A DNA stretch of 64,000 nucleotides from a bacterium (lineage in GTDB: Bacteria; JAHJDO01). The stretch lies in NCBI GenBank assembly GCA_030652805.1, contig JAUSPT010000032.1:6973-70972 (forward strand), written 5' to 3'. Every line of letters starts with the position of its first letter. Within the stretch, counting starts at the first letter, position 1. The notes under the pieces are model-generated. The model did no database searches and was not told where the DNA came from. It saw only the letters and a list, made by a program, of their open reading frames with translations. Of the stretch, positions 122 to 59,682 are shown piece by piece. The position numbers were made by a program, and so were the translations under genes.

Positions 122-1345
122 TTACCTTGTCTTATCCAATTCAAACGCTTTATGAAGGACTCGTGCGGCTTTTTTGCCTTCTTTCTTATCCACCAAACAT
201 GAAATCTTTATTTCAGACGTGCTTATTGTTCTGATATTTATTTTATTTTTACCAAGTATTTGAAACATCTTTGCAGCAACACCTGCATGGGTTCTCATAC
301 CAATACCTACTATTGAAATCTTAGCTATATTTTTATCACATTCTATTTTCTTAGGATTAACAGTGCTTTTTAATTTATCAGTAACATCAAGTGTTCTCTT
401 TATATCTTCTTTTGCAACAGTAAAAGATATGTCGGCCACTCCTTTTGCGCTTATATTCTGAATAATCATATCTACGTTTATATTTTCATCTGCTATATTA
501 TTGAAAATTGTTCCTGCAATTCCAGGCTTATCTGGAATACCAATAATTGATATCTTTGCCTCATCCTCGTTTAATATAACACTTCTAACTAATGCCTCTT
601 CCATTTTTCCCCTCTCTTTTGATACAACCACTGTACCTGTTTTGTTAATAAAGCTGGATCGTATATGAAGCGGTACTTTAAATCGCTGAGCTATCTGCAT
701 TGAACGCGGCGCCATTACCTTTGCCCCAAGGCTTGCCATTTCCAGCATTTCTTCATAAGTGATGCTTTTAATCTTCTTTGCCTGTGGAATTACCCTTGGA
801 TCTGATGTAAAGACTCCTTCAACATCAGTATATACTTCGCACTCATCTGCGCCTAGAGCTGCAGCAATTGCAATAGCACTCGTATCTGAAGCTCCACGTC
901 CCATGGTTGTTACATCATTATTAATACTTACTCCCTGAAATCCCGCAATAACTACAATCTTTCCTTTTTTAAGTTCTTCTCTTACTCTCTTTGCTCCAAT
1001 CCTCAAGATTCTGGCCTTTGTATGGGATGTGTCAGTAATTATTTCTACCTGAGACCCTGTAAAGGATATTGCATCATATCCTAAAGAGTGTATAGCCATT
1101 GTAATTAGTGCTATTGAGATTCGTTCTCCTGTAGAAAGGAGCATATCCATCTCTCGTCTTGATGGAGAATCTGTTATTTCTGCTGCCATTTTTATCAAAT
1201 TGTCAGTAGTTTTCCCCATAGCAGAAACGACTACTACCACATTATCATATCTATCTCTAGCCTTAACAATCAGTTTCGCTACATGCTTGATTCTCTCTGC
1301 ATTTGCTACTGACGTTCCACCATACTTCTGCACAATAAGACTCAT
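122..1345 (-). CDS. lysC: aspartate kinase
   Basis: 407 aa. N-terminus MSLIVQKYGGTSV and a kinase fold followed by C-terminal ACT-like repeats are typical of aspartokinase. Sits immediately downstream of thrC and hom. Confidence 0.9.
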   Translation of the reverse strand: MSLIVQKYGGTSVANAERIKHVAKLIVKARDRYDNVVVVVSAMGKTTDNLIKMAAEITDSPSRREMDMLLSTGERISIALITMAIHSLGYDAISFTGSQVEIITDTSHTKARILRIGAKRVREELKKGKIVVIAGFQGVSINNDVTTMGRGASDTSAIAIAAALGADECEVYTDVEGVFTSDPRVIPQAKKIKSITYEEMLEMASLGAKVMAPRSMQIAQRFKVPLHIRSSFINKTGTVVVSKERGKMEEALVRSVILNEDEAKISIIGIPDKPGIAGTIFNNIADENINVDMIIQNISAKGVADISFTVAKEDIKRTLDVTDKLKSTVNPKKIECDKNIAKISIVGIGMRTHAGVAAKMFQILGKNKINIRTISTSEIKISCLVDKKEGKKAARVLHKAFELDKTR

Positions 1346-1348
1346 AAT

Positions 1349-2422
1349 TTATATTCCTATAATTCTTAATATACTATTTATGTTCGGTTCTACTGTTATA
1401 GGTTTCTCAACGCTTCCTATTGCGCGATCCGGATCCTTTAAACCATGACCAGTAAGAACACAAACTGTTATCTTTTCTGAATGATTAGCTGAATTCTGCT
1501 GCTTTTTAAAATAATCATCCTTTGCCAATTTAATTATCCCTGCCACACTTGCTGCTGAGGCTGGTTCAACAAAAACCCCATCCTCCTTTGCCAGTAATTT
1601 ATAGGCTTCGAGAATCTCATCATCTGTAACTGCATATATTAGTCCTGATGACTCATCCCTTGCTTCCTCAGCCTTTTTCCAGCTTGCCGGATTACCAATT
1701 CTTATTGCAGTTGCAATAGTCTCAGGATTACGAACAATCTCCCCTCTTACAATGGGCGCTGCTCCCGCTGCCTGAAAGCCCAGCATTTTAGGAAGATTTC
1801 TAATTTTACCTGCTTCCTTATATTCCTTATATCCCATCCAGTACGCAGTAATGTTTCCCGCGTTTCCGACTGGAATTGCATGAAAGTCCGGCGATCTTCC
1901 ACCAAGCTGGTCACAGACTTCAAAAGCACCCGTCTTCTGCCCTTCTATTCTATATGGATTTATGGAATTTACCAGAGTGATAGGATAATTATCTGTTATC
2001 TCCCTGACTAGTTTGAGAGCATTGTCAAAGTTCCCCTTAATGGCAATAACCTTTGCGCCATGGATAAGCGCCTGAGCAAGCTTGCCCATTGCAATTGCAC
2101 CTTCTGGAATTAATACAATGCAATTCAGCCCCGCTCTGGCAGAATATGCAGCGGCCGATGCTGAAGTATTGCCTGTTGATGCGCACATTACTGCCTCTGC
2201 GCCCTTCTCCAACGCCTTTGAAATTGCCATTGTCATTCCACGATCTTTAAAAGAACCTGTTGGATTCGCTCCTTCAAATTTTAGAAATACTCTTGTTCCT
2301 GTTATATTTGAAAGCTTCTCAGAAAAAATTAAAGGAGTATTACCTTCATTTAACGTTACTATCGGAGTAGCTCGAGACACAGGAAGATATTTTCTGTATT
2401 GATTTATAACACCATTCCACAT
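1349..2422 (-). CDS. thrC: threonine synthase (PLP-dependent)
   Basis: 357 aa. PLP-lysine motif TGSFKDRGM. Lies in an operon with hom and lysC. Confidence 0.9.
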
Positions 2423-2425
2423 AAG

Positions 2426-2971
2426 CTAACTCGCTTTCTTAAAATCTAATCTTTGACTTATTATTAAAATTAGTTTTGCTGATAGATAACCGATCATGCT
2501 GCCTGCAACTATATCTAATGGATAATGAACTCCTATATAGACTCTGGAGAATGCAACCAGAAAAGCCAATAAATAAAATAATAGCCATTTTTTATAATAA
2601 CCAGACAACACTGCAGCCGTTGAAAAAGCAGTCTGAGAATGGCCTGATGGAAATGAGCCTACATATAATTTTTGTCCATATATATTCATATCCATAAATT
2701 GAGACAATGGCCTGGGTCTCTGAATAAGCTCTTTCAAGATATGAACAACTATGCCTCCCAAAAAGATAGTAATTAGTGATATGACGAGTATTAATAAAGC
2801 ATTTTTTCTGTCAAAGATTAATATGCTTACTACTATAAGTGGGATTAGGAAAAAACCATTTCCTAGTTGCGTCAATGTGAACATTACGAATCCCATACAT
2901 GAATTCCAGAGATGCTGATTAATAAATAGGAAAATTGACTGGTCTATTGATATAATGTAGTCAAGCATCAA
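2426..2971 (-). CDS. PAP2-family membrane phosphatase (undecaprenyl-diphosphatase-like)
   Basis: 181 aa, polytopic membrane protein. PAP2 motifs PSGHS and RVYIGVHYPLD are present. Confidence 0.7.
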   Translation of the reverse strand: MMLDYIISIDQSIFLFINQHLWNSCMGFVMFTLTQLGNGFFLIPLIVVSILIFDRKNALLILVISLITIFLGGIVVHILKELIQRPRPLSQFMDMNIYGQKLYVGSFPSGHSQTAFSTAAVLSGYYKKWLLFYLLAFLVAFSRVYIGVHYPLDIVAGSMIGYLSAKLILIISQRLDFKKAS

Positions 2972-4242
2972 TCTTCAACTCGTATGATCACGCTTTTTCT
3001 CTTAATAATATCCAACTTATCAATCTCTCTTATTGCTAAGCAAATATCCTTTTCCTTTGCCTCATGGGTCATCATAATAATTGGAACAGCGCCGCTTTGT
3101 TTTCTATCCTTTTGGATTACTGAAGCTATACTAATCTTACTCCTGCCCAATATGCCGGAAATTTTCGCAAGGACACCCGGTTTATCTACTGCTGAGAATC
3201 TAATATAATACCTTAATTTATTCTCTGATGTTTCTTTAATATCTAAACGATTGGTAAAGGAATAATCATCCATTACATTGCTTTTTGCGCTCATCTTTCC
3301 AACAATGTCAATAATGTCTGAGTAAACAGCATTGGCCGTTGGCATCTGTCCTGCCCCAAGCCCATAGAACATCATCTCTCCGATACTGTCGCCACGTAAA
3401 TATATAGCATTATACACATCGGACACAGAAGAAAGTAAATGTCCCTTGGAAATTAGAACTGGATGCACACGAACATCCAACTTATTTTCTTCTCTATTTG
3501 CTATGGCTAGCGGTTTAATTACATATCCTAATTCCTCAGCGTATTGAATATCCTCTAAAGTTATATTTCTGATTCCCTCTACATAAATGTGCCCCATATC
3601 AACCCTTGTTCTATAAATGATAGAGCTGAGAATTGCTATTTTATGAGCAGAATCAACACCGTCTATATCAAGAGATGCGTCAGCTTCCGCATACCCTAAA
3701 TCTTGAGCGTCTTTTAATGCCGCGGAGAAAGTCTGACCATCCAGAGACATCCTGCTAAGTATAAAATTAGATGTTCCATTAACTATTCCTAAAACAGATG
3801 TTATATCTGATGAACGGAAACTGTCTCTGACAGCTTTTATAATAGGAATGCCCCCTGCGACACTTGCTTCAAATTTTATATACACATTTTTATCTTTTGC
3901 CGCCTGAAAGATCTCATCACCATGAATCGCAAGAAGCGCTTTATTAGCCGTTACAACATGTTTCTTGTTTTTTAGTGCAGTAAGTATAAACTTCTTTGCA
4001 GGTTGTATGCCTCCTATTAACTCTACAATTATATCAATTGAGGGATCATTCAACACTCTGTTTACATCAGTAGTGAGTAAAGCTTTATTAATCTTCACAG
4101 ATCTAGGCGTTGTGATATCTAAATCCACTACATGTTTTAACTCTACCTGTTTCTCCTGCTGAATTATTTTTACAAGACCTGTGCCTATTGTTCCAAACCC
4201 TATAAGCCCAACCTTTTTCATCCCGGTCTCCACTGATTTCAT
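2968..4242 (-). CDS. hom: homoserine dehydrogenase
   Basis: 424 aa. NAD-binding motif GLIGFGTIGTG, a catalytic domain, and a C-terminal ACT domain. Confidence 0.9.
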   Translation of the reverse strand: MKSVETGMKKVGLIGFGTIGTGLVKIIQQEKQVELKHVVDLDITTPRSVKINKALLTTDVNRVLNDPSIDIIVELIGGIQPAKKFILTALKNKKHVVTANKALLAIHGDEIFQAAKDKNVYIKFEASVAGGIPIIKAVRDSFRSSDITSVLGIVNGTSNFILSRMSLDGQTFSAALKDAQDLGYAEADASLDIDGVDSAHKIAILSSIIYRTRVDMGHIYVEGIRNITLEDIQYAEELGYVIKPLAIANREENKLDVRVHPVLISKGHLLSSVSDVYNAIYLRGDSIGEMMFYGLGAGQMPTANAVYSDIIDIVGKMSAKSNVMDDYSFTNRLDIKETSENKLRYYIRFSAVDKPGVLAKISGILGRSKISIASVIQKDRKQSGAVPIIMMTHEAKEKDICLAIREIDKLDIIKRKSVIIRVED

Positions 4243-4430
4243 TAGAAAACTTGAACCATATCTTTTTTAGGTACATATATAATGACAGGATCATTATGCC
4301 CTTTTTTAGCAGCTTTTTCATAAACTTCATTAACATGATCTCCGCTACTAATAACTGTATCGTCTTCAAAGCTTTTAAGTGCTACATACTGCCCACTATA
4401 TTTTTTTTCTTTTACCAACTGAACGGTCAT
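4242..4430 (-). CDS. small conserved protein (DUF5678-like), function unknown
   Basis: 62 aa ORF whose stop overlaps the hom start. Charged, conserved-looking sequence (KKYSGQYVAL...IIYVPKKD). Confidence 0.4.
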   Translation of the reverse strand: MTVQLVKEKKYSGQYVALKSFEDDTVISSGDHVNEVYEKAAKKGHNDPVIIYVPKKDMVQVF

Positions 4431-4526
4431 TGTTATACCCTTCCCCTTTTTTCAGCCTATTAGTCACTTCGCTTTTACCTTAGTATTACGATATCACAAT
4501 GGGATATGTCCCTATTTATTCATTAA

Positions 4527-4823
4527 TCAATCATTTTCGTGTACTGCAGATACTCTGCCATAAATGAACTTAACATAATAAACTTTTAAAATCCCTTTAT
4601 AAACCCACCATTCTTCTTTTACTTCTATTCCAGAAAAAGAAGTAGAATGAGAAATGCGTTTACGTGTAGGTGCACCACAAAGAGACATAACTTCACTTTG
4701 GGACATACCAATCTTAACTTTTTTTGAAACATCTCCAGAGAGAAGACCGCAGGAACTAAGAAGAAAAGAACATATGAGAGTTATTGCAATCCAGAGTTTC
4801 TTGCCCTTCAGTTCATTTTTCAT
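4527..4823 (-). CDS. hypothetical lipoprotein
   Basis: Signal peptide with lipobox LLSSCG. The likely start is the internal Met (MKNELKGKK). Confidence 0.45.
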   Translation of the reverse strand: MKNELKGKKLWIAITLICSFLLSSCGLLSGDVSKKVKIGMSQSEVMSLCGAPTRKRISHSTSFSGIEVKEEWWVYKGILKVYYVKFIYGRVSAVHEND

Positions 4824-5146
4824 AATACCCCTTCCATTCTCCATTTTTTCAATATACCCTTTTCTTTAGAGTTTAGCTTTTCAGAATGATCTAATAGCTT
4901 GGCTACTATTTTTACATTAGTATTTTTATTAATTTTATTTTGAGGAAGCATGCTAGAAACACCTATTGCCTCTTCTTTGTATTTTAATAGCCATTCTGTC
5001 TGTTCTTTTACCAACTTTACTCTGCACATTTTGCCTCCCTTTCCGTTATTTTATCATAAACTGCTGGTTTTATTTTTTAGAAAAGATTCTATTTCTTCAA
5101 TGGCTTGTTTTACGTCATAAAGATATTTTTTGATTTCAAGCAACAT
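4820..5146 (-). pseudogene. decayed HepT (DUF86/HEPN) toxin remnant, frameshifted
   Basis: A 30-codon ORF (MLLEIKKYLYDVKQAIEEIESFLKNKTSSL*) overlaps the MNT stop and matches a HepT N-terminus. A second frame (4820-5029) continues with an EAIG-like segment but lacks the Rx4HxY motif. Confidence 0.35.
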
Positions 5147-5438
5147 AAATATTCTTTCTCGTACGATTTAAACTTTCTTTTAAAAATGGGTTTCTAACCG
5201 ACCCTTCAATTATAATGTCTACGGATCTATGGAAGACATTTCTTAATCTTTCTTTAAGCTCAAAATATCTATCAAAAAGATTGTCGTTTTCTTTTTGAGC
5301 AAATTCAACAATTATGTCTATATCACTACCTGCTCCAAAGTTATCGTTTGTAGCTGACCCAAATAAATCTAATTTTTTAAGATGCAATTCATTGCAAATT
5401 TTACTAACTTTTCCTTCATAGGGTTTTATGTCTAACAT
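5136..5438 (-). CDS. MNT-type nucleotidyltransferase (antitoxin of a HepT/MNT pair)
   Basis: 100 aa. Minimal nucleotidyltransferase motif GSxxxxxxxxxSDIDI (LFGSATNDNFGAGSDIDIIV). Confidence 0.75.
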   Translation of the reverse strand: MLDIKPYEGKVSKICNELHLKKLDLFGSATNDNFGAGSDIDIIVEFAQKENDNLFDRYFELKERLRNVFHRSVDIIIEGSVRNPFLKESLNRTRKNIYVA

Positions 5439-5555
5439 ATTTTTTACTCCTTGAATACTAACTGAATTGTATCACATAATCTTATCATTTTAAATACATG
5501 CCTGAGATTAAATCAGGGGCACATCCTATTTATTCCAAAGACATGTAACATATTA

Positions 5556-5711
5556 TCAATAGTCATCTTCCTTCAGTCTTATTCTTTTGAAGAGATTCTC
5601 TACGGGGATACCTTTTGTTCCATCCGCTATAGCCATTCTACCAGCCTGAACAGCTTTTATAGTTTCTTTATCCTGAAGTTCATCAAGAACATCTGTAAGA
5701 ATATTCGTCAT
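5556..5711 (-). CDS. small ORF (51 aa), hypothetical, translationally coupled to aspC
   Basis: Its ATG overlaps the aspC stop (ATGA). No stop codon for 51 codons. Sequence MTNILTDVLDELQDKETIKAVQAGRMAIADGTKGIPVENLFKRIRLKEDDY. Not in the ORF track because it is under 60 aa. Confidence 0.3.
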   Translation of the reverse strand: MTNILTDVLDELQDKETIKAVQAGRMAIADGTKGIPVENLFKRIRLKEDDY

Positions 5712-6904
5712 CTCAATTCTTTCAATGCGGATTCCATTCTATCAATACCTTCTTTTATGTTCTCCATTGATGTAGCGTATGACATCCTGATGTGGTATGG
5801 AGAGCCAAAGGCAGATCCAGGAATAACGCCGACTTTGGCAATGTCCAACAGGAAATTACAAAAATCAATATCTGTATTTATTCTGTTGCCATTATATTCT
5901 TTCCCGTAATACGCAGATATATTCGGGAATACATAAAAAGCCCCTTTCGGCTTCTGGCATGAGACATTGTCCATATCATTTAATCTTCCTACAATATAAT
6001 CGCGTCTTTTCCCGAACTCATTTACCATTTTAGCAACATCGTTTGTTTTTTTCTGTATGGCAGTTAAAGCCGCTTTTTGAGAAATGGATGTCGGATTGGA
6101 TGTGCTCTGGCTCTGAAGTTTGCCTGCTGCTTTTATTATGTCTGTATCTCCAGCCGCGTAGCCAATTCTCCATCCTGTCATGGAATAGGTTTTTGAAACT
6201 CCATTTACTACTATGGTGCGTTCTTTAATATCACTATTCAAAGACGCTATGCTAATATGTTGTATACCGTCATAAATTATTTCCTCATATATCTCATCTG
6301 CAATTACATAAATATCATGTTTGCAAGCAATATCTGCAATCTCCATTAATTCATCCTTTGAGTACACGGTTCCACATGGATTTGAAGGGCTGTTAATAAT
6401 CAGAATTTTTGTTTTCTCTGTTATAGCATTCTCCAATTCATCAGGTAAGATTTTAAAAGCATTCTTTTCAACGCCTTGTATAAAAACAGGTTTTGCACCG
6501 GCAAGCTTTACCATATCAGGATAGCTAACCCAATATGGTATAGGGATAATAACCTCATCATCCGGATTACACATAACCTGAATGAGGTTATAAAGGGAAT
6601 GCTTTGCTCCGCATGAGACAATAACTTGTTCCGACGTATAATCCAGCCCATTATCATTTCCAAACTTATCGCAAACTGCCTTCTTAAGTTCCAATGTTCC
6701 TGAAGCAGGTGTATATTTTGTGAAGCCATTCTTTATTGAAGATATAGCAGCATTCTTAATATATTCAGGAGTATCAAAATCTGGCTCTCCAGCACTAAAA
6801 CCAATTACATCTATCCCTTGCGCGCGCAATGTCTTTATTTTGGCACTGATAGCTAATGTAGCTGATGGCTTTATGCTTTTTATTCTATCAGATAATTTTT
6901 GCAT
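5708..6904 (-). CDS. aspC: aspartate/aromatic aminotransferase (class I PLP-dependent)
   Basis: 398 aa with class-I aminotransferase fold motifs: a GEPDF N-terminal region and a SKTYSMTGWR lysine region. Confidence 0.85.
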   Translation of the reverse strand: MQKLSDRIKSIKPSATLAISAKIKTLRAQGIDVIGFSAGEPDFDTPEYIKNAAISSIKNGFTKYTPASGTLELKKAVCDKFGNDNGLDYTSEQVIVSCGAKHSLYNLIQVMCNPDDEVIIPIPYWVSYPDMVKLAGAKPVFIQGVEKNAFKILPDELENAITEKTKILIINSPSNPCGTVYSKDELMEIADIACKHDIYVIADEIYEEIIYDGIQHISIASLNSDIKERTIVVNGVSKTYSMTGWRIGYAAGDTDIIKAAGKLQSQSTSNPTSISQKAALTAIQKKTNDVAKMVNEFGKRRDYIVGRLNDMDNVSCQKPKGAFYVFPNISAYYGKEYNGNRINTDIDFCNFLLDIAKVGVIPGSAFGSPYHIRMSYATSMENIKEGIDRMESALKELR

Positions 6905-6908
6905 TTAA

Positions 6909-7151
6909 CTATTCTCCTATCTCTGCCATCTTCTGTCCAACCCTGACTATGTCTCCCTCTTTGACAAGAATATCCTTCAAAACACCAGATACTGGCGCAG
7001 GAACATTAAACGTAGCCTTATCTGTCAGCATCTCAATTACATCATCTCCTTTGTTTATATTATCCCCTTTTTCGCACATCCAAAAGGAAACCGTTGCTTC
7101 TTCAATCCCCTCTCCAAGTTCCGGCAAAATAAAATCCACGCTATTATTCAT
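6909..7151 (-). CDS. stand-alone lipoyl-attachment domain protein
   Basis: 80 aa with the 2-oxoacid dehydrogenase E2 lipoyl-domain signature (PELGEG ... EMLTDKATFNVPAPVSGVL). No catalytic domain. Confidence 0.7.
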   Translation of the reverse strand: MNNSVDFILPELGEGIEEATVSFWMCEKGDNINKGDDVIEMLTDKATFNVPAPVSGVLKDILVKEGDIVRVGQKMAEIGE

Positions 7152-45882: not shown

Positions 45883-46866
45883 TCATTCCATGCTTTTTCT
45901 CAGTTCATCTATAGACACTGTGGCTGTTCCAAGCTTCCCAACAACAATACCTGCAGCATGATTTGCAATATATGCAGATTCATACATTGATGCTTTATTT
46001 CCAAGACACAATGCAAGCACTCCAACAACTGTATCTCCTGCTCCGGTTACATCAAAAACCTCTTTTGCAACAGTTGGAATATTGGCTACTTTGCCGTCTC
46101 TTTCAAAAAGGGACATTCCCTTCTCTCCGCGAGTGATTAATATTGAATTTGCCTGTAATAACTTTAATAAACTCTTCCCTACCCGCACTAAACTTTGTTC
46201 ATCCTTTATCTCTGTTTTAAGACTCTCTCCCGCTTCATGATTATTTGGTGTTATCATAGTTACGTTCTTGTAATATGTAAGATGTCTTGGTATAGGGTCA
46301 ACAATAATTGGATAATTAAATTCTCTGTTCAACTTTATAATTTGTTTAACTAGATACCGTGTTACAATGCCCTTCCCGTAATCAGATATGACAATGGCAG
46401 AAATTTCACGCATATTGGATTTGATATATGCAAGTATTCTTTTTGCTTCTGTAGACTTAATCTGGCTGACAAATTCCTTATCTGTCCTGACAACTTGCTG
46501 ATGTTGAGCAATGATTCTTGTCTTCACTATAGTTGGTCTTTTCTTGCTTAGAATAATTCCATCCTCATTCATGCCCTGTTTCTTTACCAACTGCAGAAAT
46601 TCTTCTCCTGCAATATCGTCTCCAATAATTCCTGTAATTAATGCCTCTGCACCAAGTGCACATATATTATTTGCAACATTAGATGCGCCACCCATCATAA
46701 TAGATTCGGAGCTGATTTTAACAACAGGCACAGGCGCTTCTGGGGAAATGCGCTCCACAGTGCCCCAGACAAATCTATCAAGCATCAGATCGCCTACAAC
46801 AAGCACTTTTGTGCTCTTAAACCCTGCTATCACGTGTCTCAACTGGTTTATATCTATACCTTTCAT
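45883..46866 (-). CDS. D-glycero-beta-D-manno-heptose-7-phosphate kinase (RfaE domain I / HldE kinase domain)
   Basis: 327 aa PfkB-family kinase. N-terminus KVLVVGDLMLDRFVWG is typical of RfaE domain I. C-terminal GAGD motif present. Confidence 0.7.
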   Translation of the reverse strand: MKGIDINQLRHVIAGFKSTKVLVVGDLMLDRFVWGTVERISPEAPVPVVKISSESIMMGGASNVANNICALGAEALITGIIGDDIAGEEFLQLVKKQGMNEDGIILSKKRPTIVKTRIIAQHQQVVRTDKEFVSQIKSTEAKRILAYIKSNMREISAIVISDYGKGIVTRYLVKQIIKLNREFNYPIIVDPIPRHLTYYKNVTMITPNNHEAGESLKTEIKDEQSLVRVGKSLLKLLQANSILITRGEKGMSLFERDGKVANIPTVAKEVFDVTGAGDTVVGVLALCLGNKASMYESAYIANHAAGIVVGKLGTATVSIDELRKSME

Positions 46867-47393
46867 GCCTTGAATCCTCTCTCTAATGCCTTAACATTTA
46901 TTGGGATAAGATTATGTCTCCTGGGAGGAAGGATTTTTTCTAAAGCTGACTTTAGAAAATCCAGCTTTACCTCACCAGTTTCCCTCGCAAATGCTCCTAA
47001 AACAATCATATTTGCTACCTTCAGATTCTCAAGCCCAATTGCCATATCATTTGCAGGAACTTCTACAACTCTTATTTTAGTCCTTATATCCTTATTTATT
47101 TTTACCAGACTACTGTTCGCAATTATGAGTCCATCATTCAAAACAAGTTTGGAAAATTTATCCAATGATGCCTGGTTCATTACAATAAGCGTATCCGGAT
47201 GTGATATAAATGGAGAAGCTATTTCTCTTTCCGATATAATAACTGAGCAATTTGCAGTTCCTCCACGCATTTCCGGCCCGTATGAAGGAAGAGAGGTAAC
47301 GTGTTTACCTTCTTTCATGCCGGCATATGCCAGCATCTTACCCATTGACACTATTCCCTGCCCGCCAAAACCTGCTACAAGAATCCGCTGCAT
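46863..47393 (-). CDS. porG: pyruvate/2-oxoacid:ferredoxin oxidoreductase gamma subunit
   Basis: 176 aa. GFGGQG motif. Confidence 0.85.
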   Translation of the reverse strand: MQRILVAGFGGQGIVSMGKMLAYAGMKEGKHVTSLPSYGPEMRGGTANCSVIISEREIASPFISHPDTLIVMNQASLDKFSKLVLNDGLIIANSSLVKINKDIRTKIRVVEVPANDMAIGLENLKVANMIVLGAFARETGEVKLDFLKSALEKILPPRRHNLIPINVKALERGFKA

Positions 47394-47411
47394 CTAAAAA
47401 CCACCTTTCAT

Positions 47412-47484
47412 GTCATTGCGAGTCAAAGGCGAAGCAATCTCGTCTTCTGGGATTACTTCGTCGCTAATACTTCTCGTAATGACA
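47412..47484. repeat. Imperfect 73-nt palindrome made of two inverted copies of a conserved motif (GTCATTGCGAG-N4-6-GCGAAGCAATC)
   Basis: Direct copy at 47412-47440 and an inverted, more diverged copy at 47450-47484. A third direct copy lies at 59655-59682. Sits between the porG start and the island. Confidence 0.55.
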
Positions 47485-47511
47485 TCTTTAATCATATTCT
47501 AAAAATTAAGT

Positions 47512-48195
47512 TTAAATTTTCTGCATAATGAACAGTTGCTTAAACCCTCGTAAATAAAAGTTGAATTCTCTTGCTCGTTTATGCCAAATTCCTGTATTGG
47601 ATGTTTGATTGTGCCGTGTAACACATATCATATCAACTGGTTTAAAATATTTTTCTAAAATAGCATACATTTGGAAACCAACTGGGATAAATCCAGTTTT
47701 TTTGCGCCAGTGGTCTCCAATAAGCCATGCCATATACTTTCCTATTTTTAAAATCCGATGCGTTTCCTTTGCAACTTTTCCTAATTCTTCAAAGAATTTT
47801 GTGCTTTCGCAAGAAATGTTACCAATATTATCAGGGTGTTCATTATATTTTATATTATCCGAATAAGGCGAATCAATAAAAACAAAATCTGCGACTTCAT
47901 TATCCAATGGTAATTTTCTAGCATCAGCTTGTTTTATATCTGCTCTGTAAGGCACTATATCAAATCCTAGCACCTCTCGATTTTCTTCCTTACAAACATC
48001 GATAGTAGTTCCACTTCCACACATAGGGTCAACCACCAAATCTCCTTCTTTTGTGTACCTTTGAAGTAAGTTCCAGACAATAAATGCAGGCGTAACACCT
48101 GGATATTTATTATTACCGTGTGGTTTATCCCCATAATTTTGGGTTGGAAAATCCCATAATGTTGTTGTTTCGAATGATGGGGTGGTATTTTTCAT
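47512..48195 (-). CDS. DNA amino-methyltransferase (N6-adenine or N4-cytosine)
   Basis: 227 aa. AdoMet motif I DPMCGSGTT followed by catalytic motif IV DSPY. Confidence 0.8.
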   Translation of the reverse strand: MKNTTPSFETTTLWDFPTQNYGDKPHGNNKYPGVTPAFIVWNLLQRYTKEGDLVVDPMCGSGTTIDVCKEENREVLGFDIVPYRADIKQADARKLPLDNEVADFVFIDSPYSDNIKYNEHPDNIGNISCESTKFFEELGKVAKETHRILKIGKYMAWLIGDHWRKKTGFIPVGFQMYAILEKYFKPVDMICVTRHNQTSNTGIWHKRAREFNFYLRGFKQLFIMQKI

Positions 48196-48196
48196 G

Positions 48197-49477
48197 TCAC
48201 CACCTTATATTTTTATCAAAAACCTTTTGCACTATGAATAAAAGTAATTTGTTAATTTCTATAAAAGTATTTTGTTCACTTTCACTTAGGTTGCTAACAC
48301 TACTTTTCTCTGCTTCCTTTGTGTGAACAACATTATTTCTAATTAAATAAATAATATCTGACAATAGATTAGCCATTTTATCTTTATCCCAGTTATTCGG
48401 CTCTATATCATTTTTGTTTATAACATCTTCACAAAATTTCTTAAAATTCTGAATTTTTGCAAATTCTTCCTTTATAAAAGGGAAATCATTTGAAATATCT
48501 TCAATTACTAATTTCAGCATCCCTCTTTCGCTTTTAGCATTTTCAATCTGTTTAAATTCTTTTTTAGTTTTAAGCTCCTTAAGGCCTTTTATATAATTAT
48601 AAAAGTATTTATAAAAATAAGACTCCAAAGCATGATATAGTTCCAGAAATTGATAACTTGGATCTAAGTTTTCCATTGCTGATATATAAAATTTTAGTGA
48701 GTCAATATTATATTGTTTTTTGTTTGATAATAACAAGGAATCCGTAGCTTTATCGTAGATTTCATTAATGTTTTGTGGCATATTTATTTTAAAAGGAGTG
48801 CGTGTCTTACGTTCAGTAAGTCCTAGGTCGGTACATAACCTGTATAATAACTTTTCTTGTAAAGTTTCTTTATCTTTTTTTACCTTTAAAATATATTTCA
48901 TGGGCTTAAACAAGGAACAAAAATTAATGTATATGTCAGTATCTACACTGAAAACATAATGATTCCTAATAAGCCTTTCTCTAAGTTGAAAAATATAGAT
49001 AGGCAATACCTCCTTTGGATAATATAAGTCTTCTTTACTATCTTCATTTATGAAGAAATATCCCCAGCAATATCTCCTTTTGGATAGAGAACTTTTGGAC
49101 AGAGGGAATAAGTCTGAGTTCTCTTCATCTTTTAAATTCACAAGAGGAGATTCTTTTAGTTCCAGATAAATATAGTTATTTAACTCTAATCTTTGACCAA
49201 TAGGTTTAGCGAACTCAATTGCAGTTTTGTTTAAGAATAAAATATCAAATATAGGTTTAGAGAATTTAATCTTTAACTTTGAAAAATCAACTCCATACTC
49301 TTTATTATCTCTTTTGTAGACAGCACTCTTTAGGGAGTCCAAGAATTCTGGTTTACTTTTCCACAAGCTATCTATTATCTCTTGAGGATACAAGGATATA
49401 ACTTCAGAGTAGAACTTTATAGCCTTTTGTTCATTTATATTGACCATGGACATTATCCTTGAGTTGCCCTTTGCCAT
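48197..49477 (-). CDS. hypothetical protein with C-terminal Rx4H motif (candidate HEPN-like or His-Me-finger nuclease effector)
   Basis: 426 aa, no recognisable domain overall. C-terminal LIRNNVVHTKEAE...N...N. Its reading frame overlaps both neighbours. Confidence 0.4.
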   Translation of the reverse strand: MAKGNSRIMSMVNINEQKAIKFYSEVISLYPQEIIDSLWKSKPEFLDSLKSAVYKRDNKEYGVDFSKLKIKFSKPIFDILFLNKTAIEFAKPIGQRLELNNYIYLELKESPLVNLKDEENSDLFPLSKSSLSKRRYCWGYFFINEDSKEDLYYPKEVLPIYIFQLRERLIRNHYVFSVDTDIYINFCSLFKPMKYILKVKKDKETLQEKLLYRLCTDLGLTERKTRTPFKINMPQNINEIYDKATDSLLLSNKKQYNIDSLKFYISAMENLDPSYQFLELYHALESYFYKYFYNYIKGLKELKTKKEFKQIENAKSERGMLKLVIEDISNDFPFIKEEFAKIQNFKKFCEDVINKNDIEPNNWDKDKMANLLSDIIYLIRNNVVHTKEAEKSSVSNLSESEQNTFIEINKLLLFIVQKVFDKNIRW

Positions 49478-50661
49478 ATCATCTCGAAGTTATTTTCACC
49501 TCCAAGGAATTCATTAAATCCATGAAAGAAAAAGTTTCTAAGGGTAATACCGATCTTTTTTGATCGGGCTTCTTCATCTTCAAGAATATTGCTTAGAATT
49601 CTGAGTTTTAATGGGTCTTCAATATTTTCATCAAAAATTCTGAAGAATTCGCTTTTCCTACTTTCGTAATTTTCATTATTTCTATTTCTATAGTTCCCAC
49701 ATGACGCGAAAAATCCTGACAAAAAAGGTGCAGAATTCATAAAACCGTTTCTTGATGTCCACTCTAACGATTTTTCATTTCCAAAATCATCTGACTCTTT
49801 CATTCTTTCCCTATACTTCTTCCAAAGTTTCTCATCTAAATTAAATAATAAATTTGAGAATTGTTCTATATCATCGTCACTGCACAATTTCAATGTATCT
49901 GAATGTTCTTCAATAAATCGCATCCTTTCCAGTTCTGCCACAACTATATTTGTTTTATCCACTATTGGATCACGAGTATTAAAAGCAGTAAGAGCTTCAA
50001 CTATGTTTGCAAAACTATACTGATATGGTTTTTTTGAAGGAGAAGAATCTTTGTACGTAGAAAATCTCATATCTTCTATTCCACGTTTTGTGGCAATATT
50101 TGATATCGCTTCTTTAAGTGGTATATATAGAATTTCGAGTTGATGGCGCATACTCATTTTAAATTGTCCTGTATTTAATACCAATATCTTATACAAGAGA
50201 GCGTTTGTTTTTATAGAGTACCACAACTCAGCTCTTATTCTCGAACTTTTGAAGTGCTTTAATTTTTCAGGTTTATCTTTCAATTCGTCAATTACATTTA
50301 AAATACAATATGTTCTTTGCAAACCATCTAATATTGAAAGCGATTTCTCATTTACTTTATCGTTTATTATATCTTCTATTCTTTTCGTATCTTCAATATC
50401 CTTTATGCTATCTGAAAATTCTCTGCTTGCCACCAATGAAAGTGGGGGCATAATTGTATTGCTTTTTAAATCTTCTTTTAAACGATTATAGACATCATTT
50501 TTTCTGGAAATAACTTTCCCTCTCTGTATGGGCAAATTCTCTAAATTGTTTTTGACTAATTCAATGTAGTTACCGATACCTATATCTATTAGCAAACATT
50601 TTCCACTTACTTTCTTATCTTCCTTTAAGTCAAATACTCTAATTTTATTATTTATGCCCAT
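49453..50661 (-). CDS. DUF262 (ParB/Srx-fold, GmrS/DndB-like) domain protein
   Basis: 402 aa. N-terminal LPIQRGKV (P-x-Q-R) and LDGLQR (the DGQQR/DGQHR motif) are typical of DUF262. No attached DUF1524. Confidence 0.6.
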   Translation of the reverse strand: MGINNKIRVFDLKEDKKVSGKCLLIDIGIGNYIELVKNNLENLPIQRGKVISRKNDVYNRLKEDLKSNTIMPPLSLVASREFSDSIKDIEDTKRIEDIINDKVNEKSLSILDGLQRTYCILNVIDELKDKPEKLKHFKSSRIRAELWYSIKTNALLYKILVLNTGQFKMSMRHQLEILYIPLKEAISNIATKRGIEDMRFSTYKDSSPSKKPYQYSFANIVEALTAFNTRDPIVDKTNIVVAELERMRFIEEHSDTLKLCSDDDIEQFSNLLFNLDEKLWKKYRERMKESDDFGNEKSLEWTSRNGFMNSAPFLSGFFASCGNYRNRNNENYESRKSEFFRIFDENIEDPLKLRILSNILEDEEARSKKIGITLRNFFFHGFNEFLGGENNFEMIWQRATQG

Positions 50662-50917
50662 TTTTCACTCCTTTTAAAGTTTTCTCCTTACTGTTTTTGT
50701 CCCAATTATAATAAGTCTCCATTACTTTGTTATACATCTCACTTTCAAATCTTTCATCCCTTTTGGCACCAAGAATATTGCTCAAATGGACTTGTGCAAA
50801 AAGTAAATACTCTCTCCGTTTGATAACGTCTGGTGGATATGGTGTAAAATTGGGTCTATTAACAAAGAGTTCATAGTCAATTTTCTTGAATTCTTGCTCA
50901 ATTTGTTTCTTGGTCAT
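50648..50917 (-). CDS. small hypothetical protein
   Basis: 89 aa ORF whose frame overlaps both neighbours within the island operon. Confidence 0.4.
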   Translation of the reverse strand: MTKKQIEQEFKKIDYELFVNRPNFTPYPPDVIKRREYLLFAQVHLSNILGAKRDERFESEMYNKVMETYYNWDKNSKEKTLKGVKNGHK

Positions 50918-51593
50918 TTTTTATTCTCTCCTTCAATAATAATTTTTTTAAATCTTGAAATATTTGATTAAAATTCTTTACCTTTTTGCTTTCTTCGATG
51001 TCTCTGAATATATATGAACCGTCTAACTCGTATTCAGCAATTATTCTGCTTTTCGTTATATCTTTATCTTTGTAAGTAAATATCGTATCATTATCAGTAG
51101 AGACAAGCACTATTTTTATATCCTTCGTTATTTTGCTTGTTCTTAATTTCAACTTCCAATAAGCAGCCTGTGCAACTCTTTCTCTCAGACTGGCCTTACA
51201 TGAAATAATCATTTTTACAGAACAGTCACTTTTATTATAGACTATTATGTCAGCATCAGGTACTACTGAGTGTTTATCATAAAACACTTCCACATTTCTA
51301 CGTACTTTATCTAATTTCTCATTCAGCTTTTTCCTTGAAAGTCTGTTATCGTTTGTTATACCAATATTCTCGTCTAAATTTTGGATAAAATCCTTAACAA
51401 TGAAAGTTATCAACTTTTGCAGATTATGCCCACTCCAGCTATTCCATGCTTGATTAGGATCTTTTCCTCTCCTCATAGCTTCACTTTTGTACTTTTTTTT
51501 AATATCAGAGAATATCTTACTCACGAAATTAAAGTCATTTGGACTTTTCTCCCTTTCCATTAAATATATTTTTTTCAAGTCCTTAAAAGTCAT
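50898..51593 (-). CDS. candidate PD-(D/E)xK restriction endonuclease
   Basis: 231 aa. VPDADIIVYN...KMIISCK resembles a PD-x(n)-(D/E/S)xK catalytic core. Lies directly downstream of a methyltransferase. Confidence 0.45.
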   Translation of the reverse strand: MTFKDLKKIYLMEREKSPNDFNFVSKIFSDIKKKYKSEAMRRGKDPNQAWNSWSGHNLQKLITFIVKDFIQNLDENIGITNDNRLSRKKLNEKLDKVRRNVEVFYDKHSVVPDADIIVYNKSDCSVKMIISCKASLRERVAQAAYWKLKLRTSKITKDIKIVLVSTDNDTIFTYKDKDITKSRIIAEYELDGSYIFRDIEESKKVKNFNQIFQDLKKLLLKERIKNDQETN

Positions 51594-51597
51594 AATC

Positions 51598-52986
51598 TCA
51601 CTCCTTTAAACCAATTACAATATACTCGACAGGATATGCTTGCGAATTCGCATTGTCATTACTTGCAAACCTGCCAGTCTTTTCATCTCTTTTCTGCGGA
51701 AGTATCTTTGAAGGGATTTCTCTTTTTATAATCCTGTCAAGTTTAAAGCCTGAATGTTGCAAACTTTCCGCAAAGACTTCTGCATTTAGTATGTTTACTC
51801 CTTTAAGTTTAGTATCGCCAATGACATAGCAACATCTGCTACCATGCTTTAAAATTCTGAAACTTTCATCAAATACTTCTTCCATATCAATAAAAAATGC
51901 TTCGATTTCTTTTGCCATTTTCTTGCTTTTTGTAGACATTTCAAAAACAATGTCCCTAGCAATTTCACTTTTTAATTCTTTGTCTTCGTACCCTTTGTAT
52001 GAAGTCCCAATAAACTCTTTTTTGTATTCCCCTAAATCATCTACCAAGTCAAACCAGATTGTTGATAACTGATGTAAATCAGCATATTCATAGCTTGTAA
52101 CATAAGGACTTGAACTTACTATTAAGTCAACACTCTCATCAGAAACAGGTTGTCTCCTTGCATCATCAATCTTGATGTTTAGATAATTATTTAGGTTCTT
52201 TCCCATTAATCTCTCAGGAATAACACGATAAAAAGCTTCATTACCTCTCTGCATTTTCCTTAAATGCCTTCGCAATACGTTATAGGGCTTTATCTGCTGT
52301 TTTTTAAAATCTCTTGTTGGTTTTGTGCTCACCTGTAACCATATAGAACAATTTTTCAAGATGTGACTGAAAGCAACGAGGAAAAAGTCCCTGATAGTCC
52401 TATCTTTTTCGTTATAAATAACTCTTAATATTTTCCCAAGCTCAATCTTATTTTCTGTAGTGAACCAGTAATTAATTCTGTCTACATGTTTTTGTGGAAT
52501 TAAAGGATTGATTTGTTGTCCATCCAAAAATTTTAATCTTGATAAAATTTTTATTATTTTTTTATCAAGATATTCAGGATTTATAGGTGTTGCCTTTACT
52601 TTCGTCATTAGACAAGCTATTTTATTAATATCTGTTCCACTAGCTTTAAAGCCTCTCGATATTGCAGTGACTATAGTAGTTCCACAACCCATAAATGGAT
52701 CATTTATATGGGCGTTCTCATCAGATATGTATTCATCAACAAGTTTTTCAACCAACTGAGGAATAAATTTAGCGGGATAACGATGATAACAATGAGTCCA
52801 TTTAGCAGTATCTGACGGCTTATACTCTATAAAAGACCAATCTTTATCAATTTCTTTTTTATTAAAAACTTTGATAATTTTGTTAGCTAGATTTTCTCTT
52901 TCAGATTCAATAAATTGAACAGGAAAAATACCTTCATGGATGTTTGTATTGACTACAGCTCTCTGCATTTCTCTTTCCTCAAGCAC
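51598..52986 (-). CDS. DNA amino-methyltransferase, alpha-class architecture (motif I ... TRD ... motif IV)
   Basis: 462 aa. DPFMGCGTT (motif I) near residue 100 and SSPYVTSY (SPPY-like motif IV) near residue 290. Confidence 0.8.
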   Translation of the reverse strand: MLEEREMQRAVVNTNIHEGIFPVQFIESERENLANKIIKVFNKKEIDKDWSFIEYKPSDTAKWTHCYHRYPAKFIPQLVEKLVDEYISDENAHINDPFMGCGTTIVTAISRGFKASGTDINKIACLMTKVKATPINPEYLDKKIIKILSRLKFLDGQQINPLIPQKHVDRINYWFTTENKIELGKILRVIYNEKDRTIRDFFLVAFSHILKNCSIWLQVSTKPTRDFKKQQIKPYNVLRRHLRKMQRGNEAFYRVIPERLMGKNLNNYLNIKIDDARRQPVSDESVDLIVSSSPYVTSYEYADLHQLSTIWFDLVDDLGEYKKEFIGTSYKGYEDKELKSEIARDIVFEMSTKSKKMAKEIEAFFIDMEEVFDESFRILKHGSRCCYVIGDTKLKGVNILNAEVFAESLQHSGFKLDRIIKREIPSKILPQKRDEKTGRFASNDNANSQAYPVEYIVIGLKE

Positions 52987-53727
52987 CTATCCGCTTTTAT
53001 CCTTAATCACCCCAAGAGGATAAGTCTTTATTAACGTATTATCAATCCACTCCGCAGCTTTCTGTGGAGTCATAGCAAGGTTAACAGGACACTGAGACAG
53101 AACCTCAACCATTGAAAACCCCTTGTCTTCCAGCTGTACTTGAAAAGCTTTTTTGATGGCTTTTTTAGCTTTAATAATATTTGCCGGTTTATTCACTGCC
53201 ACTCTTTCTATATAAATAGATCCATCCGTAATAGCCAGCATTTCTGAGATTTTTATTGGGTATCCAATTAGCCTGGCATCTCTGCCTAAAGGAGTTGTTG
53301 TTGTCTTTTGACTAAGTAATGTTGTGGGAGCCATTTGTCCGCCTGTCATTCCATATACGGTATTATTTACAAATATTGTGGTTATTCTTTCCCCGCGATT
53401 TGCTGCATGAATTATCTCTCCTGTGCCTATAGCAGCAAGATCTCCATCTCCTTGATATGTAAATACAACTTTATCAGGATGAACCCGCTTTATTCCTGTT
53501 GCAACAGCAGGTGTTCTTCCATGCGCAGCTTCAGTCATATCTATATTAAAATAATGATACATAATAACTGCGCACCCAACAGGAGGAACTCCAATAGTTC
53601 TATCCTGAATGCCAAGTTCATCTATTACCTCACCTATTAACCTATGGACAATCCCATGCCCACAACCCGGGCAATAATGAAATGGTTTGTCTGTCATAGA
53701 TCTTGGCCTGCCAAATATCTTCTTCAT
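52987..53727 (-). CDS. porB: pyruvate/2-oxoacid:ferredoxin oxidoreductase beta subunit (TPP-binding)
   Basis: 246 aa. N-terminal CPGCGHG and a TPP-binding GDG region. Confidence 0.85.
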   Translation of the reverse strand: MKKIFGRPRSMTDKPFHYCPGCGHGIVHRLIGEVIDELGIQDRTIGVPPVGCAVIMYHYFNIDMTEAAHGRTPAVATGIKRVHPDKVVFTYQGDGDLAAIGTGEIIHAANRGERITTIFVNNTVYGMTGGQMAPTTLLSQKTTTTPLGRDARLIGYPIKISEMLAITDGSIYIERVAVNKPANIIKAKKAIKKAFQVQLEDKGFSMVEVLSQCPVNLAMTPQKAAEWIDNTLIKTYPLGVIKDKSG

Positions 53728-53729
53728 CT

Positions 53730-54812
53730 CTATTCTTTCTTTTTTGTGCCTTTGTGCCTTTGTACCTCTAATTCTTTAATTCTATTTACTATCTCTTCTG
53801 ACGTAGGAACTCCTCCACCCATTCTTCCATAAAAATACACAGGGCATCTTCCCAGAACCGCAAGTTTTACATCTTCAACCATCTGTCCTGCGCTCATCTC
53901 CACAGTAAGAACATACCTGACATTATTACTTATCTTTCTTATTATTGCTGATGGATAAGGCCATAATGTGATAGGTCGAATCAACCCGGCTTTTATCCCC
54001 TCTTTTCTCAAAAGAAACACAGATTCTTTGCAAATTCGAGCGCACATTCCATAAGCTACCAGTATTATCTCTGCGTCATCTGTCAACACTGCTTCGTATT
54101 CTACAAGCTCTTTCTCTATTCTTCTATACTTGTTCTGAATTTTCTTATTATGCTCTTCCAACTCTCCAACTTTCAGCATCAGAGTCCTGATTATATTTGC
54201 CCTGCGGCCTTTTGCGCCGGTAAGCGCCCATGTTTTTGGGGGAAGCTTCAACTCTTTTATTTTTCTTATTTCCAATGGCTCCATCATTTGCCCGAGGAAA
54301 CCATCTCCCAATATCATCACAGGATTTCGGTATTTATCTGCCAGGTAAAAAGCTCTGGCTGTCCAGTCATAAAGCTCCTGAACAGAGGCAGGCCCGATTG
54401 TAATAAGTCTATAATCTCCATGTCCTCCACCTTTTACTGCCTGAAAGTAATCTGCCTGAGAAGGAGTTATATCTCCCAATCCCGGACCAGCACGCATTAC
54501 ATTCACAATTACACACGGCAGCTCTGCGCCTGCAATATAGGAGATTCCTTCCTGTTTAAGACTTATTCCAGGACTGGATGAAGATGTCATAGCTCTTGCG
54601 CCGGCCGCTGACGCGCCAAAGACCATGTTAATGGCAGCAAGCTCACTTTCAGATTGGATAAAGACACCTCCAAGTTCACCTAATCTCTCTGCCATATATG
54701 CGGTTAATTCATTCTGCGGAGTTATAGGATAACCGAAATAATGCCTGCATCCCGCCTGAATCGCGGCCTCTCCAACAGCGCCATTTCCACTCATTAAGAC
54801 TTTCTCTGTCAT
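53730..54812 (-). CDS. porA: pyruvate/2-oxoacid:ferredoxin oxidoreductase alpha subunit
   Basis: 360 aa. Typical N-terminal MSGNGAVGEAAIQAGC and transketolase-like domains. Confidence 0.85.
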   Translation of the reverse strand: MTEKVLMSGNGAVGEAAIQAGCRHYFGYPITPQNELTAYMAERLGELGGVFIQSESELAAINMVFGASAAGARAMTSSSSPGISLKQEGISYIAGAELPCVIVNVMRAGPGLGDITPSQADYFQAVKGGGHGDYRLITIGPASVQELYDWTARAFYLADKYRNPVMILGDGFLGQMMEPLEIRKIKELKLPPKTWALTGAKGRRANIIRTLMLKVGELEEHNKKIQNKYRRIEKELVEYEAVLTDDAEIILVAYGMCARICKESVFLLRKEGIKAGLIRPITLWPYPSAIIRKISNNVRYVLTVEMSAGQMVEDVKLAVLGRCPVYFYGRMGGGVPTSEEIVNRIKELEVQRHKGTKKKE

Positions 54813-59654: not shown

Positions 59655-59682
59655 GTCATTGCGAGTGTCAGCGAAGCAATCT
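59655..59682. repeat. Third copy of the GTCATTGCGAG...GCGAAGCAATC motif, upstream of kdsA
   Basis: Both 12-mers (GTCATTGCGAGT and GCGAAGCAATCT) are identical to the copy at 47412-47440. Lies about 40 nt upstream of the kdsA start. Confidence 0.5.

Follow-up and report, generated by a model that had tools for sequence, protein, structure and literature searches.

A divergent Dazbog pair nested in a BsaWI-like restriction-modification operon as a probable six-gene mobile defence cassette

Introduction

To which system do three consecutive genes belong that encode a DUF262-type protein, a protein of 426 amino acids (aa) and a small amino-methyltransferase? The question arises from a 64-kb stretch of a bacterial contig (JAUSPT010000032.1; hereafter the window), in which a preliminary description had flagged three minus-strand open reading frames (ORFs) at 47512-50661 as a possible novel three-gene module, perhaps a split GmrSD-like system. 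The ORF list bears out the positions and lengths (402, 426 and 227 aa) of all three. They are the last three of six co-oriented, closely packed genes, a unit that spans 47512-52986 on the minus strand with the three additional genes at 50648-52986. The claim of a novel three-gene module does not stand, since the conserved unit is M1-R-(s89)-DzbA-DzbB-M2 and has the known Dazbog pair inside it. We read this unit as probably a mobile defence cassette, in which a divergent Dazbog is nested between the endonuclease gene (R) and the second methyltransferase gene (M2) of a type II restriction-modification (RM) operon, and which carries two autonomous layers of defence that are inherited together.

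The Dazbog anti-phage system reportedly goes back to Millman et al. 2022, and the work on its trigger is that of Stokar-Avihail et al. (bioRxiv 10.1101/2022.08.27.505566). Dazbog is a two-gene abortive-infection system whose first gene has a DUF262 domain; the Bacillus system becomes toxic upon expression of the cytosine methylase of phage SPR, and escaper phages lose CCGG methylation (bioRxiv 10.1101/2022.08.27.505566; PMC10952713).

Results

A six-gene operon

The cassette has the order M1, R, s89 (a gene of 89 aa), DzbA, DzbB and M2:

51598-52986, minus strand: M1, first gene of the cassette, N4/N6 amino-methyltransferase of ~456-462 aa
50898-51593, minus strand: R, 231 aa, BsaWI-like PD-(D/E)xK type II restriction endonuclease
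50648-50917, minus strand: s89, 89 aa, function unassigned, part of the restriction-modification backbone
49453-50661, minus strand: DzbA, 402 aa, Dazbog sensor component, ParB/DUF262-type putative nucleoside triphosphatase (NTPase)
48197-49477, minus strand: DzbB, ORF of 426 aa, probable divergent Dazbog effector component
47512-48195, minus strand: M2, 227 aa, circularly permuted N4/N6 amino-methyltransferase, cognate methylase of R
47394-47511, no strand: spacer of 118 nucleotides (nt) that separates the cassette from the oxidoreductase gamma-subunit gene downstream

According to the ORF list and the junction sequences, all junctions of the six genes overlap or span 1-5 nt. The s89 gene has overlaps of 20 nt with R and 14 nt with DzbA, and the start of M2 is coupled to the stop of DzbB (TGAcATG). 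The GC content of the cassette is 0.29-0.32, compared with 0.36-0.43 in the flanks. Given the tight junctions and the shared low GC, the six genes form a single operon. The three flagged ORFs are real genes and not chance ORFs, as seen from conserved homologues of each and, in the 402- and 426-aa families, from invariant motif residues. The motifs that had been quoted for the flagged genes, LPIQRGKV, LDGLQR, IRNNVVH and DPMCGSGTT followed by DSPY, are all present in the translations. Two of the starts are probably internal to the ORFs. That of M1 is probably the ATG at 52968, which has a GAGGA ribosome-binding site ahead of it, and that of the 426-aa ORF is Met9 or Met11, which gives a protein of 416-418 aa by homologue alignment, NCBI annotation and a TAATG stop/start overlap with the 402-aa gene.

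The 402- and 426-aa proteins as a divergent Dazbog pair

The 402-aa protein matches the PADLOC model of DzbA (PDLC03835) over its full length (E=1e-80; residues 8-396 on profile positions 3-382 of 393). It contains the motifs QR, DGLQR (DGxQR in the family) and LN, the first two within the LPIQRGKV and LDGLQR stretches, and residues Q46, R47, D112, G113, Q115, R116 and N163 are invariant across the 402-aa family. The Pfam model DUF262/GmrSD_N (PF03235) is not matched by the protein itself; it is matched weakly by 4 of 20 members of the DzbA clade (best E=0.0015), which places the clade under the Pfam threshold, and it is carried by farther DzbA homologues (24-32% identity). Because of the PADLOC match, the relatives that carry PF03235 and the motifs, the protein is assigned to the DUF262 type, so that its earlier reading as a stand-alone, ParB-like DUF262 protein probably holds. 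The DzbA-family profile had no meaningful match in the PDB. Profile hidden Markov model (HMM) searches, which the preliminary description had proposed for these proteins, gave a mixed answer: the 402-aa protein is found by the PADLOC and not by the Pfam model, and the 426-aa protein has no direct match in Pfam, NCBIfam or PADLOC.

Recognition of the 426-aa protein comes through its relatives. Homologues that are 35-36% identical to it match the PADLOC model of DzbB (PDLC03836) at 8e-16 to 1e-11, and with the more remote nested partners included the matches range from 8e-16 to 4e-5, over the C-terminal halves. The 426-aa protein has few relatives: they make up 25 clusters in a set of 5.8 billion proteins, and when 1.84 billion representatives were searched exhaustively with the family profile, 70 matched at E<=0.001, only ~12 of them over the full length. 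DzbB was the sole PADLOC match of nine out of ten remote hits tested from this search. As canonical DzbB we took 31 proteins whose genes immediately follow canonical DzbA in genome contigs; two of these were scanned, and both match the DzbB model. Alignment of the 426-aa family with the 31 canonical proteins by hhalign gave a probability of 95.5% (E=1.5e-8, 215 columns) and paired YHxLES with YQVIE and IYxIRNxIVH with iYxvRNxivH, the latter containing the canonical RNxIVH.

The N-terminal half of DzbB is an alpha/beta region without a recognisable fold. The C-terminal half presents a HEPN-like helical domain (~258-423), with the YHxLES motif and an Rx4H motif (R380-N-N-V-V-H385). Residues R380, N381 and H385 do not vary among 20 sequences of the 426-aa family, and Y281, H282, E285 and S286 are likewise invariant. 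Members of the family match the Pfam models HEPN_Apea and MauJ, and the helical bundle resembles that of HEPN toxins and AbiV, unlike DNA nucleases. The IRNNVVH stretch had been thought to be either a HEPN Rx4H motif or a His-Me finger; the former is borne out, while the latter finds no DUF1524/HNH match and is at odds with the HEPN-like bundle. The domain is thus HEPN-like in fold and motif, and a ribonuclease (RNase) activity is predicted for it. By these sequence comparisons the 426-aa protein is a divergent DzbB, and the 402- and 426-aa proteins together represent the known two-gene Dazbog system.

The restriction-modification genes around the pair

M1 matches Pfam N6_N4_Mtase (PF01555, E=7e-14) and PADLOC MTase_II (E=1.8e-54), and its motif I (DPFMGCGTT) precedes motif IV (SSSPY). 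M2 matches the same Pfam model (E=3e-22), with DPMCGSGTT and then DSPY; in the PDB it matches 2zie at 4.8e-10 and the N4-cytosine methyltransferases 8s9m/8s9n at ~1.5e-8. The sequences of M1 and M2 do not discriminate an N4-cytosine from an N6-adenine target.

R contains the Pfam domain RE_BsaWI (PF18643, E=2.8e-25), with the motifs PD (112-113), SxK (131-133) and RER (137-139); P112, D113, S131, K133, R137, E138 and R139 are invariant in its family. The R sequence alone has no real match in the PDB. The family profile is needed, and it matches the BsaWI structure 4zsf (E=1.7e-4) with SSKVTLRER aligned with QSKTSIRDR. BsaWI recognizes WCCGGW. Neither CCGG nor WCCGGW is avoided in the 64-kb window, where CCGG was observed 200 times against 177 expected. 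Other sites are under-represented in the whole window (observed/expected: GATC 0.52, CTAG 0.57, GGCC 0.69 and GATATC 0.45), and their scarcity may reflect other restriction systems in the organism.

The R of the window (50898-51593) is 37-41% identical to the R of other nested cassettes, compared with 70-85% among those. With the R of locus L053 it shares 81% identity and with that of L054 57%, and the catalytic and recognition motifs are kept. M1, DzbA, DzbB and M2 of the window are not outliers in identity, unlike R. This divergence of R alone suggests, from sequence identities, either allele replacement or fast evolution of R.

The s89 protein has no match in Pfam, NCBIfam or PADLOC. Members of its family have 79-92 aa (window 50648-50917; L016 1348-1593; L002 9303-9551; L113 6689-6934), and they accompany the BsaWI-like RM genes both where Dazbog is present and where it is absent. 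The gene does not keep one position: in some loci it precedes R, and in others it separates R from DzbA or DzbB from M2. Its product could be a regulator of the RM system.

The nested order recurs in 14 lineages

The neighbourhoods of homologues were collected from their gene contexts and from genome and metagenome scans, and were annotated with custom HMMs. Homologues of the three flagged genes co-occur elsewhere, as the neighbourhood check suggested in the preliminary description was meant to reveal. The order M1-R-(s89)-DzbA-DzbB-(s89)-M2 is found in 14 independent lineages (the window, L016, L001, L002, L004, L007, L009, L011, L053, L115, L150, L151, L152 and L153), that is, in every lineage of the clade with enough flanking sequence (14/14), always within a BsaWI-like RM operon. 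Chance juxtaposition of the three genes was considered and rejected. The housekeeping flanks of the nested cassette are different in every lineage. The host of L002 belongs to Melioribacteraceae; L001, which has Alba, HTH_10 and EarA alongside, and L007, next to an ADP-dependent kinase, RIO1 and ribosomal L30, are probably archaeal, and the nested cassette of L009 is an integrase-linked element. A further locus, L018 (Cloacimonadota), shows DzbA-DzbB-M2 on a contig that ends on the 5' side.

Linkage of the pair to the RM genes persists down to 35% DzbA identity (L151). Over eight lineages the identities are 47-81% for M1, 64-83% for M2 and 70-85% for R (the R of the window excepted), and 44-76% for DzbA and 23-68% for DzbB. 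The Dazbog genes therefore evolve much faster than the RM genes.

For comparison we used 33 other Dazbog loci in genome contigs, namely 31 canonical ones, L018 and L019. They are two-gene units among unrelated neighbours, and none of the 33 has a BsaWI-like R nearby. A full-length M1-like methylase is seen among them only in L028, and a 110-aa M1-like fragment in L045/L046. In L028 (6977-10554), from an archaeal metagenome-assembled genome (MAG), canonical DzbA-DzbB is directly followed by the M1-like methyltransferase of 430 aa, with no BsaWI-like endonuclease detected nearby.

A scan of viral contigs found no member of the nested clade. On the viral contig L144 (IMGVR_UViG_3300001567_000038, 577-6921), proteins of 380 and 434 aa form a distant Dazbog-like pair that contains the motif IYNIRNGIVH. 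Its neighbours are a BsaWI-like endonuclease in divergent orientation, an M1-like methylase and two ~255-aa proteins, arranged otherwise than in the cassette, and tail-fibre-like genes lie beside them.

Operons without Dazbog, a cargo slot and decay

A scan with the R profile yielded 356 relatives, 80 of which were retrieved and annotated. Among these 80, M1, R and M2 are directly adjacent and free of Dazbog in ~25 loci, and R-M2 occurs with neither M1 nor Dazbog in ~30. M1-R-M2 is thus an ordinary, widespread type II system, and M2, from its adjacency to R in the ~55 Dazbog-free loci, is the cognate methylase of R. The view of M2 as a protective enzyme belonging to the flagged module is contradicted by this adjacency and by the reduction of M2 to a remnant in two Dazbog-carrying lineages. 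In a neighbour-joining tree of R, the operons that carry Dazbog are interspersed with those that do not, which points to repeated loss, gain or exchange of the Dazbog insert. Depending on the lineage, Dazbog lies on either side of s89.

The slot between R and M2 contains other genes in several relatives. In L076 (1855-5049) and L120 (2707-5919) it harbors a 1064-aa helicase with a PADLOC match to 'possible alternative Cas3' (3e-205) and DpdF-like matches, in L113 (6958-8933) a 144-aa protein and a HATPase_c_3 protein, and in L125 (737-1843) two proteins without assigned identity. In L007 (4739-6310) a HEPN_Swt1 / PDC-M34B protein is placed between M1 and R.

Components of the cassette decay independently of one another. 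M2 is reduced to remnants of 92-99 aa in the two lineages mentioned, L004-6 (L004 9071-9370) and L009/10 (L009 9464-9742); downstream of the L004 remnant lies an AbiV-type HEPN gene. DzbA is frameshifted in L053 (2833-4080), and an IS200/605 Y1 transposase splits DzbB in L152 (1685-3422).

Genomic setting in the window

By Pfam matches, the cassette is flanked by genes for the beta (52987-53727) and gamma (46863-47393) subunits of a 2-oxoacid:ferredoxin oxidoreductase. Its location between these two subunit genes means that it splits a housekeeping operon. Within 46863-54812, the stop of the beta gene is ~18 nt from the probable start of M1, the gamma gene is 118 nt downstream of M2, and the cassette measures 5.5 kb. 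NCBI annotates the cassette proteins as hypothetical proteins of a bacterial MAG on a 184-kb contig.

The spacer after M2 contains a 13-nt inverted repeat, ATGTCATTGCGAG / CTCGTAATGACAT, at 47410-47422 / 47473-47485 with a 50-nt loop. Its core GTCATTGCGAG is found once more at 59655-59665, a count that is not above chance. The repeat may be a repeat element or a hairpin at the end of the transcript. Direct repeats as a signature of insertion were not found around the cassette, where the spacer inverted repeat is the only repeat. In a scan of the cassette for promoters and terminators, sites were no more frequent than in shuffled sequence.

Discussion

The arrangement of the cassette suggests how its two layers would work. 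In the restriction layer, M1 and M2 would methylate the DNA of the host, and unmethylated incoming DNA would be cut by R. In the Dazbog layer, DzbA, as a putative NTPase of the ParB/DUF262 type, would sense a foreign DNA modification, such as the methylation with which a phage methylase would hide DNA from R. DzbA would then switch on the HEPN domain of DzbB, with predicted cleavage of RNA and arrest of growth (abortive infection). Because Dazbog is nested inside an addictive RM operon, it would be transferred together with the operon and stably retained, and it would arrive with resident methylases that it tolerates. The identities of the genes, their nesting, its recurrence and the HEPN-like fold and motif of DzbB are observed. 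Predicted are the trigger, which is taken from the Bacillus Dazbog experiments, the cleavage of RNA by DzbB and the autonomy of the two layers.

Several points weigh against this account of a nested and autonomous Dazbog. At E<=0.1, the DzbB model does not match the 426-aa protein of the window directly. Between the two types of DzbB the N-terminal halves cannot be aligned, so homology can be demonstrated in the C-terminal half alone; from these two facts, automated callers of two-gene systems probably miss the pair of the window. The trigger proposed for the clade is extrapolated from a Bacillus homologue that is ~30% identical. Lastly, the linkage to the RM operon outlasts what hitch-hiking would lead one to expect (35% DzbA identity in L151; L144), which leaves room for functional coupling of the two layers.

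Such coupling could take two forms: DzbA would read methylation at the site of R itself (probably of CCGG type), or DzbA and DzbB would guard the RM system as PrrC guards EcoprrI. In the first form, marks of the N4/N6 type made by M1 and M2 would be tolerated, and a foreign mark, such as 5-methylcytosine, would fire the HEPN RNase of DzbB; in both forms the six genes would make up one integrated system. In favor of coupling, the order is constant in the 14 lineages, down to 35% identity of DzbA and ~23% of DzbB; Dazbog lies now on one and now on the other side of s89, which hints that it was captured or rearranged more than once within the same operon, and on the viral L144 a second, otherwise arranged Dazbog-like pair has an M1-like methylase and a BsaWI-like R as neighbours. 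Bacillus Dazbog, moreover, is triggered by a CCGG-modifying methylase, and the BsaWI family carries the R-(D/E)-R motif, which is the motif of CCGG readers. Menshen, another DUF262 system, has likewise been linked to methylases (PMC12065111). Against coupling, close relatives of the RM backbone lack Dazbog or carry unrelated cargo (helicase, HATPase, HEPN_Swt1), the 33 canonical or more distant Dazbog loci include none with a BsaWI-like R nearby and only L028 with a full-length M1-like methylase, the components decay independently (M2 remnants, frameshifted DzbA, DzbB split by an insertion sequence), and CCGG is not avoided in the window. On balance we consider a coupled module unlikely, if worth keeping in mind. 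Equally tentative is the thought of an integrated two-sided sensor, in which R would cut DNA that lacks the amino-methylation of the host and Dazbog would read a foreign mark at the same site, for instance 5-methylcytosine written at CCGG by a phage, and set off abortive infection through HEPN. If it were true, a phage would escape neither unmethylated nor self-methylated, and the R-M2 junction would be a dedicated slot in which defence genes (Dazbog, the Cas3/DpdF-like helicase, HATPase and HEPN proteins) are captured and swapped.

Two other explanations fare worse than coupling. The cassette might be a remnant, in decay or inactive, that has lost its function, for instance through its aberrant R, and its arrangement would then serve no purpose today. 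The low identity of this R (37-41% to the R of nested lineages that share 70-85% with each other) fits that idea, as do the related cassettes with a frameshifted DzbA (L053), an IS-disrupted DzbB (L152) or a truncated M2 (L004, L009). Yet the six ORFs of the window are intact and tightly coupled, the PD, SxK and RER motifs of R, those of DzbA and the Rx4H of DzbB are all kept, and the 81% identity with the R of the nested L053 shows the gene to be part of a conserved sub-lineage instead of an isolated case of degeneration. Since all ORFs and key motifs are intact, we hold an inactive remnant to be decidedly improbable. Less credible still, and indeed very hard to sustain, is the split GmrSD/SspE-like modification-dependent system of the preliminary description, which would combine a DUF262 NTPase, a separate DNA nuclease of His-Me or other type (the 426-aa protein) and a methyltransferase of its own. 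The DUF262-type motifs of the 402-aa protein and the adjacency and translational coupling of the three genes speak for it. However, no DUF1524/His-Me match was obtained for any of the six proteins in Pfam, NCBIfam or PADLOC, the 426-aa protein ends in a domain like those of HEPN toxins and AbiV and unlike DNA nucleases, the pair is homologous to DzbA/DzbB of an abortive-infection system, and M2 pairs with R in the ~55 Dazbog-free loci and is decayed in two lineages that carry Dazbog.

A nested, probably autonomous Dazbog remains the account that we favor. Dazbog at the level of the family and BsaWI-like RM systems are already known. What is new is a divergent clade of Dazbog with a DzbB that the current model does not recover, the evidence for a HEPN effector, and the nesting with a reusable cargo slot. 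A literature search, which had the original Dazbog paper outside its scope, found no account of the mechanism of Dazbog, of DzbB as a HEPN protein or of nesting in an RM operon. Dazbog is protective but its mechanism is unsolved, and the locus reveals a branch of it whose second gene is missed by standard models. For the effector in DzbB, the evidence favors a HEPN-type domain with predicted RNase activity. Placed inside a DNA-methylating operon, a sensor of modified DNA offers a natural test of tolerance to resident methylation and of cover against self-methylating phages. The R-M2 slot with its other defence genes extends the idea of embedded defence from type I and BREX loci to a type II family.

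Comparison with known systems

Comparison with canonical Dazbog shows the same succession of a DUF262-type DzbA and a DzbB, with a full-length match of DzbA to its PADLOC model and a homologous C-terminal half of DzbB that has the RNxxxH motif. The DzbA of the window differs in being ~30% identical to canonical DzbA and under the Pfam DUF262 threshold, the DzbB of its clade has an N-terminal half that cannot be aligned with the canonical one, and the clade is nested in a BsaWI-like RM operon in 14/14 cases against 0/33 for other Dazbog loci. With the BsaWI/CCGG family of type II RM systems (4zsf), the cassette shares the RE_BsaWI domain of R with its PD...SxK and R-E-R motifs, the adjacent amino-methyltransferases and the M1-R-M2 or R-M2 backbone that is common in metagenomes. 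Unlike in that family, two foreign genes separate R from M2, and R, an unusually divergent allele, is accompanied by two methyltransferases and the 89-aa gene.

PrrC is an abortive-infection anticodon nuclease with a HEPN-type motif, encoded inside the type Ic EcoprrI locus as a second line of defence. There, as in the cassette, an RNase of abortive infection (a predicted one in the cassette) is encoded inside an RM operon. PrrC is, however, a single protein that the type I RM complex keeps inactive until a phage anti-restriction peptide sets it free, whereas the cassette has a separate DUF262 sensor and a type II host operon. The guardian concept is cited in bioRxiv 10.1101/2022.08.27.505566.

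The BrxU/GmrSD/SspE enzymes, of which BrxU is found in a BREX locus (PMC10952713), likewise place a DUF262-type sensor of modified DNA inside a methylation-based defence locus, where the sensor covers phages that evade the methylation-dependent layer. Unlike them, the cassette has no DUF1524 His-Me nuclease; its effector is a separate HEPN-like protein, and its predicted outcome is abortive infection instead of cleavage of modified DNA. Menshen (NsnA-B-C; PMC12065111) resembles the cassette in its stand-alone ParB-DUF262 sensor and its separate effector, mostly an RNase, and its authors noted an association with methylase genes and nearby nucleases (PMC12065111). Menshen differs in that it needs the ABC ATPase NsnB and the inactive-PIN effector NsnC, neither of which is in the cassette. 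By analogy, PrrC within EcoprrI and BrxU within BREX may come closest to the cassette in its possible mode of action.

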